From: a virus
Virus genome (UHGV): UHGV-0164982
Direction: 5' to 3' (one strand)
Length of the DNA: 64,000 nucleotides
Below the pieces are notes generated by a model, which was not told where the DNA came from, did not search any database, and saw only the letters and a list, made by a program, of their open reading frames with translations. Below, in pieces: positions 27,826 through 35,294 of the stretch. Every line of letters begins with the position of its first letter. The first letter of the stretch is position 1. The translations under genes and the position numbers were made by a program.

Positions 27826-28218
27826 ATGAATTACACTAAAGCAGTATCCACATCAAAAATATATGATTTTTGGGATACAAGTGATAACATTGTTGGGCGT
27901 ATAGAGGAGCACAATATGACTAATTATCATTGCATGCCAGACCTCAGCCCGGAAGAGATTCGTAAGATCTCTGAAGCAGCCGTGGCGAGTGTCGCTGCAA
28001 AAAAAATAGTCACTAACAGCAAGCATATAACTAAAAGTGCATCTTTAGCTGGAAAAGTGATGGCTAAACAGGCAGACGTTATCAAGAAACTGTCTGGCAC
28101 AGGTTCTTCTGCCATTAAAATTAATAAAGCATTTACGGACAGTGTACTTACGCAAAGCAAAAGTCGAAAATATTTTCAAGAAGCTTTCATACAAGTTCGT
28201 AAAACCATCAAGGTTTGA
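27826..28218 (+). CDS. small Lys-rich protein of unknown function (AT-rich cargo)
   Basis: ORF 130 aa; more likely start ATG 27916 with GAGGAG RBS (100 aa); visibly AT-rich compared with flanking structural genes. Confidence 0.45.
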   Translation: MNYTKAVSTSKIYDFWDTSDNIVGRIEEHNMTNYHCMPDLSPEEIRKISEAAVASVAAKKIVTNSKHITKSASLAGKVMAKQADVIKKLSGTGSSAIKINKAFTDSVLTQSKSRKYFQEAFIQVRKTIKV

Positions 28219-28241
28219 TGCTTTCATAAAACATGATTAAT

Positions 28242-28264
28242 GCCCCTTATCGGGGCTTTTTTTT
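28242..28264 (+). terminator. rho-independent terminator
   Basis: GCCCC-TTATC-GGGGC then TTTTTTTT. Confidence 0.65.
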
Positions 28265-28276
28265 GTTTGGTGCGCA

Positions 28277-31349: not shown

Positions 31350-32880
31350 CGTTCCCTAATACACAGACGGGGACAACCCCGTGGTGTCAGGCTTCTTAGG
31401 CCGCAACCATCATCAGATCATCGTTTGCATTTACTTTAATGGTCAGTTTGTGACTGCTCCCCGCCCTGTCGGGCGAGGCTTCCCACTTCTCAGGCCACAA
31501 CCGTCTGTGCGACGGATTTACGCTGGCCTCCATGGGCGGAGACGACGAGTCCCGCCGCCTGTAGTTCCAGTATTCCTTTTTGCCGGATGTTGAGTGCCGC
31601 ATTGATATCGCGGTCGTGCTCTGCTCCACATTCAGGGCATCGCCAGATGCGTTTATGAAGCGGCATTTCCGGCATTTTGTAACCACAACAATAGCAGGCT
31701 TTCGAACTGGCAAACCACTGGTCGAGTTTTACTAGGTGAACGCCTTTTTCCGCTGCCTTGTACTCCAGCTTTGTGATGAAGCTATGCCAGCCTGCATCAC
31801 CTATCGCTCTTGCCAGATTGTGGTTTTTCATCATGTTGGCTGTTTTCAGCATCTCGACAATTACCGCTTGGTTTTCGTCAACAATTGCACGAGAGAGCTT
31901 GTGTTGAAAATCAGCACGGGCATTAGCCACCCGTTCGTGTAACGCTGCCAGACGGATTGTGGCCTTTTTACGATTCGCGCTTCCCTTTTGCTTGCGGGAT
32001 AAGGCTTTTTGTTTGCGTCGCAGATTACGGCTGGCATTGATGAGATGGCGGGGATTTGCAATTTTTACCCCATCAGACTTGATGGCAAAGTGCGATAATC
32101 CCATATCTAGGCCAGTAACTGTTGATATCAACGTGGGTTTTGCCGGAGCTTCCATGCCATCATCACAGAGAATTGAAGCATAGTATTTCCCCGTTGCTGA
32201 ACAGGTGATAGTGATGCTTTTCAGCTTTCCATGAAGTTCACGGTGAAGGCGTGCTTCTATTAGGGACAGTTTTGGGATTTTGATGGCATTATCCAGCACC
32301 TTAATCCCGACACAGTGATAGCTCGATTGTTTTCCGTGTTTACGTTTAAACGTCGGGAACCGCGCTTTCAGCTTCGGATTAAAAAAGTTGGAAAATGCCA
32401 CATCAAGATTAATTACCGCCTGTTGCAACGCAATAGAATCATATTCTTTAAGCCATCCATACCTGCGGGATTTCTTTGCCACTGCAAGCAGCGGTTTCAG
32501 ATCGTTACGCGGACTTAAATTTACTCCATGTCGCTGGTAAGCATGTTTTTTGATGTGAAGAGCTTTGTTGTACGCAAAGCGCACTGCACCGAACTGGGCA
32601 TTGAGGTACTCTGCCTGTTCTGGTGTCGGGTAAATGCGTACTTTTGTTGCTCTTAACATAGTCACCGCTCATTGATACAGGCTTTTTATGCTAACACCGT
32701 AATGATTTTTTTAAAGCCCTGTTGGCTTTTCGCCTTATATACCCGCCCGCATTAGGCGAGGGTTTACGGCGTTTTTCGCTAAACCGCCGCAAAGTCGCTA
32801 ACCATGACGAAACCCCTGAAAAAAACGCCCACCCGAAGATGGGCAAACTGGATGGAAGCTCGTTACGCACTTCGGAGTTG
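31350..32880 (-). mobile_element. IS609-like element lacking tnpA (approximate ends)
   Basis: tnpB with no Y1 transposase ORF nearby; subterminal hairpin GAGTTGCC...GGCAACTC and terminator near 32820-32900; ends not mapped. Confidence 0.45.
31490..32665 (-). CDS. tnpB: TnpB, IS200/IS605-family (IS609-like) RNA-guided nuclease
   Basis: 391 aa, RuvC-like motifs and CxxC...CxxC zinc finger; closely resembles E. coli IS609 TnpB (InsQ) as I recall it. Confidence 0.85.
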   Translation of the reverse strand: MTMLRATKVRIYPTPEQAEYLNAQFGAVRFAYNKALHIKKHAYQRHGVNLSPRNDLKPLLAVAKKSRRYGWLKEYDSIALQQAVINLDVAFSNFFNPKLKARFPTFKRKHGKQSSYHCVGIKVLDNAIKIPKLSLIEARLHRELHGKLKSITITCSATGKYYASILCDDGMEAPAKPTLISTVTGLDMGLSHFAIKSDGVKIANPRHLINASRNLRRKQKALSRKQKGSANRKKATIRLAALHERVANARADFQHKLSRAIVDENQAVIVEMLKTANMMKNHNLARAIGDAGWHSFITKLEYKAAEKGVHLVKLDQWFASSKACYCCGYKMPEMPLHKRIWRCPECGAEHDRDINAALNIRQKGILELQAAGLVVSAHGGQRKSVAQTVVA

Positions 32881-33011
32881 CCACTTAGGCGCATGGTCAA
32901 CCTGGCAACTCGGTGGTTTGTCTGGGAGGACTAGGCCCAGCCATGCTTACCGCCGCGCCTGTCGCGGCTAACAGCTAAATCGCTCTAAAAATCACGATTC
33001 ATTGATTCGAT

Positions 33012-33039
33012 ATTACACTAATAAATTTATTAGAGCAAT
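33012..33039. promoter_or_regulatory. bipartite overlapping C1 operator-like sites just past the dmt stop
   Basis: AAATTTATTAGAGCAAT 17/17 at 33023-33039 overlapping ATTACACTAATAAATTT 15/17 at 33012-33028. Confidence 0.75.
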
Positions 33040-35294
33040 ATTGCTATAACGTCATGAGCAACACCACGAGTGTCTCCCTTACAAGACACAGAACGTCTGG
33101 CAAAAAGAGGTTCCACTCTGAAGCCACTGTCCTGATAAAGTTCTCTGATGTTTGGCGCGCCACTGTTAGTAATGAGAACCTTTGCACCTCGGCGATGAGC
33201 ATCCGTCAACAGAGACACCAGGCGTTTTTGCTCTTCAAACTTAAAGTCATGACCGGAATAGTTCGTGAACCCCTCTGTATTGGGGAGCGGTTCATACGGC
33301 GGATCGCAAAAGATGACATCTCCTTCTCCGGCAGCTTCAATCACCGCTGCAAAATCACCGCATACAAACTCAGACCGCCCTTCCGCACCGAGGAAGGCTT
33401 CCATCTCCTGTAATGGAAAATGCGTAGACTTATACTTCCCATACCCGACATTGAACTCACCGGCCTGGTTGTAGCGCGTCAATCCATTAAAACAATGTCG
33501 GTTCAGGAACAAAAACGCCGCTGCGCGATGTAAATCATCATAGACTTGTTTGTTAAACGCATTCCGTACTGCCAGGAATCCCTCCTGGGTGTTGTAGTCC
33601 AGGAAGAAACGATGTGCCAGAGTGATAAGTGAATGCGCCTCGCGTTGCAGAGTCTTGTAAAAGTTAATCAGGTCAGCATTCACATCATTTAGCAGATTTT
33701 CCTGATATCCGGCATTCATGAAGACAGCTCCGCCACCAACGAAAGGTTCAATCAGGCGCTTCCCTTCTGGCAAATAGCGAAAGATTTGTTCCAGAACACC
33801 AAATTTTCCACCAGCCCATTTGAATATGGGCCGTTCGAATTCTGCCGCTGGTTTAACCTTTCGCTCTTTTGTTTCACTCCCTTCTTTTTGCCGACATGCA
33901 GCCTTAGTAATCCGATCGCCAATCCAGCGCATTACTGGTATTGCCATACTATTGCCGATCGCTTTGTAACGCGGTCCGTCAGCTGCAAGCATCGCGGCCT
34001 CTTCTTCGCTTAAATCTGGATAGTGATTGCGAAGATATGCCAGTTCATCTGAATTAACTTTTTTACGCTTTTCCGTCGGGATCAACGTATGCCCATCAGG
34101 AAAACCTTGCAGCCTTTCACATTCGACAGGGGTAAGACGGCGGACAGCTACTTCTGCGTTTCTTACTTCATAGCAAACAGCTGTTGGATTTTTAGCCATT
34201 AGAGATGGTGAAGTATTCTTAGTTGCAGCATGTTGTGTACCGCTCATACGCTCAGGAAAAGCCAATGTAACAAGATGCTCATGGCTTTCTTGCTCACGTG
34301 CCCGCAATGTACCATGCCCTTCTGACCAAAAACCTGCTCCTGTGCTGCTAAAAACGGCAAGGTCAGTGGCATCTTTAAAATCTCTTGCCTTTACTGTCGA
34401 TGCGGTTTCATCGTCAATATATTCCCCAAATGCCGCCATCCTGAAAGCGTTTACGGCTTTCGTCGATTTCATACCGGGTGGCATGTCAGCGTGTAGGCAT
34501 GGATTTAGGCTTTCGCCACTGATTGCAGCGCCATTTGCAATAATGGCGGAAGCGATTTCCTTCTTTTTTCGGCTCGGCGCAATATTCCGGCGCACGCCTT
34601 CGAACTCAAAAAGTACCGTTGCGGGATCGAGGTCTGTTCGAGCACTTGCGACAACAAACACGCGTCGGCGTCGTTGTGCCACTCCGAAGTATTGGGCATC
34701 AAGGATTCTCCAGGCCACCTTTCGCTGCGGTCCATAAATACAACCACACTGCGGCCACTTTGGAGCATGGCAACCGGTTTTGACATCCCACCGCCAGAAC
34801 GTGTTACTTTTTCGTGATTCAGGTCGATCACCAGGTTCGAATGGCGCATCTTCTCCAGCCAATCCGGCAAGGAAACATCCGAACGCGTTGTCTGCTGATG
34901 ACAGGACTCCTGGGACATTTTCCCAGACGATAACTGTCGGTTTGAGGAAGGACTCAGACCGTTTGTCGTCAATTGCATTTGCAAGCTCCACATACTTCAA
35001 AGTTAGCGCGCCGCGTTCATCATCAAGCCCACCACGTAAGCCCGCGATACTGAATGCCTGACAAGGCGTACCCCCGACGAGCACATCAGGGGCTTCAATT
35101 TCTCCGGCCTGGACTTTTTGGGCGAGTTTTGTCATGTCGCCAAGGTTCGCGACATGGGGCCAGCGGTGCGCAAGAACGGCAGATGGAAAAGGCTCGATTT
35201 CAGCAAACCACGCCGGACGCATACCCAACGGTTCCCATGCAATGCTCGCGGCTTCAATTCCACTGCAAACAGATCCATAGCACAGCTCTCTCAC
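33030..35294 (-). CDS. dmt: bifunctional DNA methyltransferase Dmt (C5-cytosine MTase N-domain fused to Dam-like N6-adenine MTase)
   Basis: 754 aa; [12 protein letters not shown] and ENV motifs N-terminal; KWAGGK and DPPY motifs C-terminal. Confidence 0.85.

Follow-up and report, generated by a model that had tools for sequence, protein, structure and literature searches.

In the virus genome UHGV-0164982, analysed here as a window of 64,000 nucleotides, the interval that runs from baseplate gene 5 to dmt is a true variable cargo slot, the ban-operon slot, of a P1/P7-like phage-plasmid, and its present content is a five-piece mosaic from at least four independent events in which only two pieces are AT-rich. 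We assign a probability of about 0.6 to the reading that the slot was rebuilt by separate events, a 186-type integration among them, and that the 311-amino-acid (aa) open reading frame (ORF) on its minus strand, ORF311, is a stand-alone nuclease-type effector of defence or competition. An effector role is what family membership, genomic context, expression position and selection most likely indicate, and we infer that ORF311 is the functional cargo of the slot.

Both borders of the slot lie where the original prediction had placed them: the last base of gene 5 is 27811, and the start of dmt (33030-35294, minus strand) falls within a palindromic C1 operator at 33010-33041. Alignment with blastn shows collinearity with P1 on either flank, over 27000-27792 at 97.5% and over 32779-34000 at 95.9%, and no collinearity across the interval, where only remnants of dbn, trnI and backbone align. 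In P1, the genes read from the C1-controlled promoter Pban follow in the order dicF-like region, tRNA-Asn, tRNA-Thr, tciA/B/C, tRNA-Ile2 (trnI), ban and dbn, with upl and plp on the opposite strand (P1 annotation). Apart from the remnants, dbn, ban, trnI, tciCBA, upl, plp, trnT and trnA are absent here according to blastn and the P1 annotation; about 4.4 kb of P1 genes have been lost, and foreign DNA stands in their place. No DnaB-like ORF was found in the interval (ORF list and domain scan) and no intact tRNA in the whole window (ARAGORN), as had been stated, but the 3' half of a tRNA-Ile2 persists. The 7 kb around the slot are 100% identical to several P1/P7-like phage-plasmids, including the mcr-1 plasmid pHYEC7-mcr1 (NZ_KX518745), and the Klebsiella plasmid NZ_MH781719 is likewise 100% identical over the 7 kb compared; alignment with the phages P1, P7 and SJ46 covers only 41% of this length.

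At least six slot configurations occur among otherwise collinear relatives, which, together with the P1 alignment, confirms the expectation of a variable cargo hotspot. P1, P7 and SJ46 represent one of them (dbn-ban-trnI-tciCBA-upl-plp-trnT-trnA in P1); E. albertii plasmids combine a two-gene cassette (cassette A) with intact dbn-ban-tci; Klebsiella P1-like plasmids carry a diverged cassette A pair with other small genes; pE148 and pRHB31-C17_2 hold the 311-aa gene only and LHM10-1 the 311-aa gene with tnpB; and the window holds cassette A, dbn and trnI remnants, the 311-aa gene and a tnpB insertion sequence (IS). A GC content of 0.32-0.39 is confined to 27750-29000 and 29750-31000, with 0.47-0.52 in the flanks and 0.44-0.53 in the dbn remnant, the P1 backbone piece and the IS; the description of the interval as one AT-rich island applies to the former two stretches but not to the latter three components. 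The three ORFs at 27826-28218 (+), 28277-28978 (+) and 29710-30645 (-) are intact, as the original prediction had it, but they are not orphans, since ORF311 has a large family and the 100-aa and 233-aa genes of cassette A recur as a pair. The decayed glycosyltransferase gene and the solitary tnpB that had been recognised correspond to the 3' portion of dbn from P1 (92%) and to a tnpB-only IS, and the supposed ORF-poor spacer of 0.85 kb turned out to hold an integrase pseudogene fragment, an inverted-repeat element of ~172 bp and 335 bp of P1 backbone (Table 1).

The DNA around ORF311 (cassette B) matches the end of a Klebsiella prophage: positions 30918-29540 align with the 3' end of its int gene, a 311-aa homologue and att' at 81.5% over 1,392 bp. 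In tblastn comparison, 30913-30666 corresponds to aa 260-333 of the integrase, interrupted by stop codons and a frameshift, and RefSeq annotates an integrase fragment at the same place. Homologues of ORF311 at 56-90% identity lie on Klebsiella, Yersinia and Enterobacter chromosomes, 2-18 bp downstream of int of P2/186-like prophages and, in the 186-type prophages, on the cI-int strand; at all seven of the 186-type prophage loci (7/7), the 3' 45-47 nt of tRNA-Ile2(CAU), beginning at the anticodon loop, follow the homologue after ~120-135 bp. In the window, the 3' 43 nt of this tRNA survive at 29540-29582, where prophage homology and P1 homology overlap and from where the alignment switches to P1 trnI exactly at the anticodon loop; the overlap therefore marks an attR-type junction. 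Furthermore, P1 trnI is annotated as ileX-like, and phage 186 integrates into the tRNA-Ile genes ileX and ileY, 186-type integrases generally targeting tRNAs (PMC3448106). Judged from these alignments, a 186-type phage evidently integrated site-specifically into the plasmid's own trnI. An identification of the int-proximal position with the P2 hotspot of Rousset et al. was dropped, as that hotspot sits next to cos (PMC9122126).

Five separate steps account for the present arrangement, and this anatomy and history have good support. A 186-type temperate phage entered the tRNA-Ile2 gene (trnI) of a P1-like plasmid. A later deletion, extending from about codon 251 of the integrase gene as far as the P1 DNA just ahead of tRNA-Asn, removed most of the prophage with attL, as well as tciCBA, upl, plp, trnT and trnA; at the attR end it spared a decaying 3' fragment of the integrase gene, the 311-aa gene in intact form and the tRNA's 3' half. 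A second deletion took ban and two thirds of dbn. A 1.2-kb two-gene cassette was gained after gene 5, and the tnpB-only IS was inserted.

The original prediction had seen no motif of a known defence family in the intact proteins, which is wrong for ORF311. This protein matches, in each case over the full length, the Pfam families pP_pnuc_1 (118.9 bits, cutoff 26.3; 1.5e-34) and pP_pnuc_2 (115.5 bits, cutoff 25; 2.1e-33) as well as the PADLOC model Aga_Nuclease (E = 1.2e-62, model positions 5-267 of 267). Its family comprises 757 clusters at 50% identity, nearly all of 270-300 aa and unfused, with mostly polar invariant residues (R33, N34, R43, R52, R85, Q87, K90, T128, H129, Q230, E231 and D237), and the stretch R33-N-Y-A-S-H38 resembles the HEPN motif Rx4-6H, R33 and N34 being invariant and H38 present in at least 90% of 33 sequences. 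The AlphaFold model, with a predicted local distance difference test (pLDDT) score of 85, consists of a helical N-domain (1-195), a three-stranded beta domain (197-254) and a disordered acidic tail (278-311). Profile searches with hidden Markov models place ORF311 in a family. The ORF311 profile had one chance match among PDB sequences (E = 0.6), and its model gave no convincing structural match in the PDB, with no nuclease fold recovered; for the 233-aa protein, structure search was uninformative. That ORF311 is a nuclease is predicted from the family, and its fold would in effect be an uncharacterised one.

The ratio of non-synonymous to synonymous substitution rates (dN/dS) of ORF311 relative to the Klebsiella copy is 0.058, next to a decayed int fragment, with 0.04 in the core vs 0.21 in the tail, and the gene is intact in all 24 PLSDB plasmids (24/24) and all 18 E. 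coli genomes (18/18) that carry it, with the integrase fragment 20 bp away decayed. A tblastn search of 50,697 GenBank phage records matched neither ORF311 nor the 233-aa gene (ORF233); both are known from plasmid, prophage and metagenome records only.

Genomic context was compared across about 60 homologous loci at 27-100% identity, made up of 10 close homologues (exact-protein look-up), 19 genomic loci, 22 viral contigs and 6 distant members. Among the neighbours in these loci there was no PIWI gene and no conserved partner of another kind; within the window, ORFs of at least 380 aa contained no PIWI domain, and the island has no ORF of that size. The neighbours of the family include Dsr1 with PD-Lambda-1, three AbiJ-like genes, a TIR effector, PDC (PADLOC) candidates, a type I restriction endonuclease (REase), an NgoPII restriction-modification pair, SMODS, DUF4365 and AAA_13 proteins in phages, and integrases and terminases. 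Homologues without the tail, 41-57% identical, are located in variable parts of chromosomes, next to genes for Dsr1, AbiJ, TIR and restriction-modification. On this comparative evidence, ORF311 belongs to the Pfam family yet is, to all appearances, not part of an Argonaute system.

Two side observations concern the same loci. AbiJ-like genes (Abi_C) are the sole recurrent neighbour of pP_pnuc genes, in 3 of the 19 genomic loci and on either side of the family gene (L018/L004 4648-5478; L020 6890-7642; L022 754-1506), and a functional pairing is possible in some lineages. In addition, tail-less homologues of 277 aa in Shewanella, Pseudoalteromonas, Aestuariicella and Aliivibrio (loci L029, L031, L032, L033 and L035) stand in runs of small same-strand ORFs that look like chromosomal integron cassette arrays.

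The C-terminus of ORF311 reads ...APPDFEMDDNVPF (...FEMDDNVPF) at the end of the acidic tail, with pLDDT below 50 for residues 294-311. The 13 enterobacterial copies compared end in [DE][DE]xx[PSE]F after ~35 poorly conserved acidic residues, their tips including DDNVPF, DESTPF, DDDAPF, DDDMPF, DENTPF and similar hexapeptides, and distant family members have independently arrived at DNDIPF, DDDVPF, DNEPF and DDLDF. The bacterial single-strand DNA-binding protein (SSB) ends, in E. coli, in ...PPMDFDDDIPF. The C-terminal tip of SSB is the hexapeptide DDDIPF (PMC5872125). With tails of at least 15 aa considered, 10 of 21 representatives end in F vs 4 of 165 background ORFs, and an acidic tail ending in F occurs in 17/22 viral-contig copies vs 1/19 genomic copies, this one lying inside a prophage. 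The tail motif is recurrent, terminal and tied to phage carriage. ORF311 has no SSB match in Pfam and no OB-fold in its helical and three-stranded model, and tblastn with E. coli SSB found no SSB gene in the window. By analogy, the tail plausibly imitates the SSB tip, which could serve recruitment to SSB-docking proteins, a decoy function or auto-inhibition, in no order of preference; a literature search for a link between SSB-tip mimicry and phage defence returned nothing relevant.

On the favoured reading, ORF311 would be made in lysogens, because in 186-type prophages, its native position, it lies on the cI-int strand 2-18 bp after int. It would work without Argonaute and most likely be a one-protein effector of nuclease type that takes part when mobile elements compete, its effect being the exclusion of other phages or abortive infection. 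The tail would most plausibly link this activity to SSB-docking proteins, through recruitment, decoy or auto-inhibition. Several points weigh against this proposal. In the P1 context, ORF311 points the same way as the C1-repressed ban operon, and the promoter scan gave it no convincing candidate, with 8 sites vs 11.6 expected by chance from shuffled sequence, so that expression in lysogens is only presumed in that context. The enrichment of the tail in phage copies fits a pro-phage (anti-defence) role equally well; the HEPN-like R33-N-x3-H38 motif lacks the backing of profile comparison (no Pfam HEPN match in ORF311, and a probability of 0.7% in hhalign for the family vs the AbiJ-like neighbours); within the P1-like lineage, 7 non-synonymous and 5 synonymous substitutions are too few to show selection; and literature searches by Pfam names and accessions and by RefSeq protein accessions yielded no defence, toxicity or nuclease experiment on any family member. 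A broader generalisation can be offered as speculation, with the odds clearly against it: the pPIWI-associating nuclease family would be mostly Argonaute-independent, and its phage branch a new kind of single-gene immune or competition effector with an SSB-tip mimic, spreading from phage to phage as one temperate phage integrates into tRNA genes that another carries; the mimic would serve as bait for SSB-docking replisome proteins of phage or host (a decoy sensor) or for delivery to replication forks.

The other explanations have to be set against the same body of evidence. An anti-defence or host-takeover factor, whose SSB-tip mimic would titrate SSB-docking proteins (ExoI, RecQ, RecJ, PriA and others) or an SSB-watching sensor and would thereby help the phage-plasmid or prophage to replicate, would suit the concentration of the tail in viral rather than genomic copies, the orientation of ORF311 with the early C1-controlled ban operon in the P1 context and the failure to recover a nuclease fold. 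This role is nevertheless unlikely, given that tail-less homologues stand beside Dsr1, AbiJ, TIR and restriction-modification genes, that the gene follows cI-int on the lysogenic strand in 186-type prophages, and that the core is far more constrained than the tail. Far less credible is a role as the effector half of an Argonaute system (BPAN-like), with the prokaryotic Argonaute (pAgo) encoded elsewhere in the host: what speaks for it is the library names only (Pfam 'predicted pPIWI-associating nuclease', PADLOC 'Aga_Nuclease'), and against it stands the lack of PIWI in the window and among the neighbours at about 60 loci. Moreover, bAgaN, the nuclease of long-B pAgo, is a PD-(D/E)XK enzyme with a D-EVK motif and a Card1/Can2-like fold (PMC10620215), and in ORF311 neither the D-EVK motif (family alignment) nor a match to an REase-like (Card1/Can2-like) fold (structure search) was seen.

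It is also conceivable that the whole interval is decaying junk, its intact ORFs being functionless passengers in a slot that tolerates insertions because the plasmid can dispense with ban, tci and the tRNAs. In favour of this stand a truncated tRNA, an IS and two pseudogene remnants; in the P1-like lineage the few substitutions show no clear bias, and ORF311 has no clear promoter. The integrity of ORF311 in every carrier (24 plasmids, 18 E. coli genomes) beside an integrase fragment decayed 20 bp off, its dN/dS of 0.058 relative to the prophage copy and the retention of cassette A as a pair across genera make this explanation quite doubtful. The stand-alone effector remains the reading that we favour.

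Table 1. Segments of the slot and its anchors, in window coordinates.
Feature	Position	Strand	Remarks
Left anchor, baseplate gene 5 (210 aa)	27179..27811	+	P1 homology stops at 27792; final 19 nt differ
Cassette A	27793..28991	+	New DNA, GC 0.34-0.38; replaces 75 bp of P1
dbn remnant, 3' third	28992..29500	-	P1 glycosyltransferase family 4 gene; 92% to P1 dbn, frameshifted
ban-trnI intergenic remnant and 3' half of tRNA-Ile2(CAU)	29503..29582	-	87.5% to P1
Cassette B, 186-type (P2-like) prophage remnant	29583..31114	-	Non-P1 DNA; 81.5% over 1,392 bp to Klebsiella prophage
ORF311	29710..30645	-	311 aa; Pfam pP_pnuc_1 and pP_pnuc_2, PADLOC Aga_Nuclease
Decayed integrase 3' end (aa 260-333)	30666..30913	-	Stop codons and frameshift
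Inverted-repeat element, ~172 bp	30901..31072	.	Inside integrase remnant
Extra integrase piece, 28 bp (about aa 251-260)	31079-31106		
P1 backbone segment, 335 bp	31115..31449	-	82% to P1 DNA between dicF-like region and tRNA-Asn
IS200/IS605-family tnpB-only element, 1,329 bp	31450..32778	-	tnpB at 31490-32665
Right anchor	32779..33041	-	dicF-like region with terminator 32826-32845; bipartite C1 operator/Pban 33010-33041 overlapping dmt start

Cassette A has a history of its own. It is present in 17 PLSDB plasmids, five of which (5/17) are E. albertii P1-like plasmids, and because these five keep an intact dbn-ban-tci, cassette A is independent of cassette B. The gene pair recurs at the same site in Klebsiella P1-like plasmids, and in a Dickeya conjugative element it adjoins ccdAB, ardC and type IV secretion genes. 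For the first gene, the most likely start codon is the ATG at 27916, preceded by a GAGGAG Shine-Dalgarno sequence at a distance of 6 nt; translation from there yields 100 aa, in agreement with homologues and the E. albertii annotation; the ATG at 27826 is without a Shine-Dalgarno sequence, and the 130-aa ORF that begins there is probably over-extended. The 100-aa protein has the conserved motif MPxLSPEEIRKIS and matches phrog_34496 in PHROG; the 233-aa protein matches phrog_25194, and its conserved N-terminal domain is helical; it also has a helix of 70 residues, a pair of hydrophobic helices (144-183) and a C-terminus that is disordered. PADLOC matches of ORF233 (PDC-M64B/C and LeoBC; E = 0.002-0.01) were too weak and were set aside. 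We infer that the cassette is an independent mobile two-gene module, composed of a predicted membrane-anchored protein and a small partner. Between its two genes lies a terminator-like GC hairpin, GCCCCTTATCGGGGC, followed by T8 (28242-28264, plus strand), which is odd within a conserved gene pair and may be an attenuator or a separator of expression.

The tnpB element is a late and separate event that stands outside the cargo function. It is inserted precisely between ...GCGGCGGTTTAG and AAACTGACC..., and the empty-site comparison finds this site uninterrupted in P1 and pE148-2; pE148-2 and pRHB31-C17_2 have the remaining arrangement without the IS. TnpB has HTH, OrfB_IS605 and zinc-ribbon domains and scores 345.8 with the NCBIfam model guided_TnpB (cutoff 100). 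No TnpA is annotated at the IS in the reference plasmids, which list tnpB only, and the other ORFs of the IS, not domain-scanned, are of at most 105 aa and overlap tnpB; because no tnpA is present, the IS would be unable to move alone. A sub-threshold Rfam match to permuted transfer-messenger RNA (tmRNA) at 31396-31499 on the minus strand (32 bits vs a gathering score of 47) straddles the right end of the IS and probably reflects a structured IS end or guide-RNA region, not a tmRNA; over the island as a whole, Rfam returned sub-threshold chance matches only.

Further observations concern the remnants and the flank. The dbn remnant contains a near-perfect palindrome of 42 bp at 29170-29211, with 21-nt arms that are 95% complementary and have no spacer; P1 dbn has only an imperfect palindrome at the same spot, which suggests that the left arm was changed in the direction of complementarity. 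An Rfam microRNA match at this position is spurious and caused by the palindrome. The inverted-repeat element within the integrase remnant is bounded by 14-bp terminal inverted repeats, CTAAATAGCTGCGC and GCGCAGAAATTTAG, and has a 75% identical single-copy counterpart in the CP4-57 prophage of E. coli K-12, where this segment lies between intA and yfjH; about 500 of 5,426 E. coli genomes contain it. Both strands of the element fold better than shuffled sequences (z -3.3 and -3.65), with no Rfam match for the element and only sub-threshold chance matches for its K-12 counterpart; a small mobile element and an unannotated RNA are both conceivable. Beside the slot, dmt varies as well: in the plasmids without tnpB and cassette A, the gene adjoining the slot is annotated at ~3.3 kb (~1,095 aa), and it encodes 754 aa in the window and in P1. 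The long Dam-family methyltransferase copies lie at 4107-5577 in L012 and 4034-5502 in L013 (record coordinates 6643-9930 and 19433-22720).

P1-like phage-plasmids are major carriers of resistance genes, and the slot illustrates a concrete route by which they acquire cargo: phage-borne tRNA genes can act as attachment sites for 186-type phages, with one phage inheriting the cargo gene of another. In addition, a family filed under Argonaute accessories is found here to be overwhelmingly solitary, its surroundings being defence genes, the ends of prophages and mobile elements. The tail marks the phage-borne copies and points to a connection, open to testing, between a predicted nuclease and the hub of SSB interactions, a hub that several recent defence systems monitor as well. 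Should ORF311 indeed protect lysogens, it would constitute a new and compact system of one gene, with a control element of an unusual kind.

Comparison with known systems places these features in context. The flanks of the slot, gene 5 on one side and the dicF-like region, C1 operator and dmt on the other, correspond to those of the P1 ban operon (Pban/Op72) at 96-97% and in equal orientation; of the operon itself, dbn and trnI survive as remnants, and the helicase, tci and intact tRNA are missing. The IS shares with IS200/IS605 tnpB-only elements the three TnpB domains and a clean insertion without rearrangement. As in the integration of phage 186 at ileX/ileY, the att core is the tRNA-Ile2 3' half from the anticodon loop and the integrase is of the Int_N plus Phage_integrase type, and as in 186-type prophages a cargo gene lies between int and att; unlike in the usual 186 integration, the target tRNA belongs to another phage, a P1-like plasmid, instead of a chromosome, and ~1.5 kb of the prophage is left. 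ORF311 fits the PADLOC Aga_Nuclease model over its full length and resembles bAgaN/BPAN, a two-domain Argonaute accessory of ~280 aa, but, unlike bAgaN, it has no pAgo partner in any context examined and bears an SSB-type tail. In HEPN RNase effectors such as AbiJ, RnlA and Csm6, Rx4-6H lies in the last helix, whereas the motif of ORF311 lies near the N-terminus of the domain. The tail shares with the SSB tip a disordered acidic linker ending in D-D-x-(I/V)-P-F, and, unlike in SSB, this motif is carried not by an OB-fold but by a predicted nuclease.

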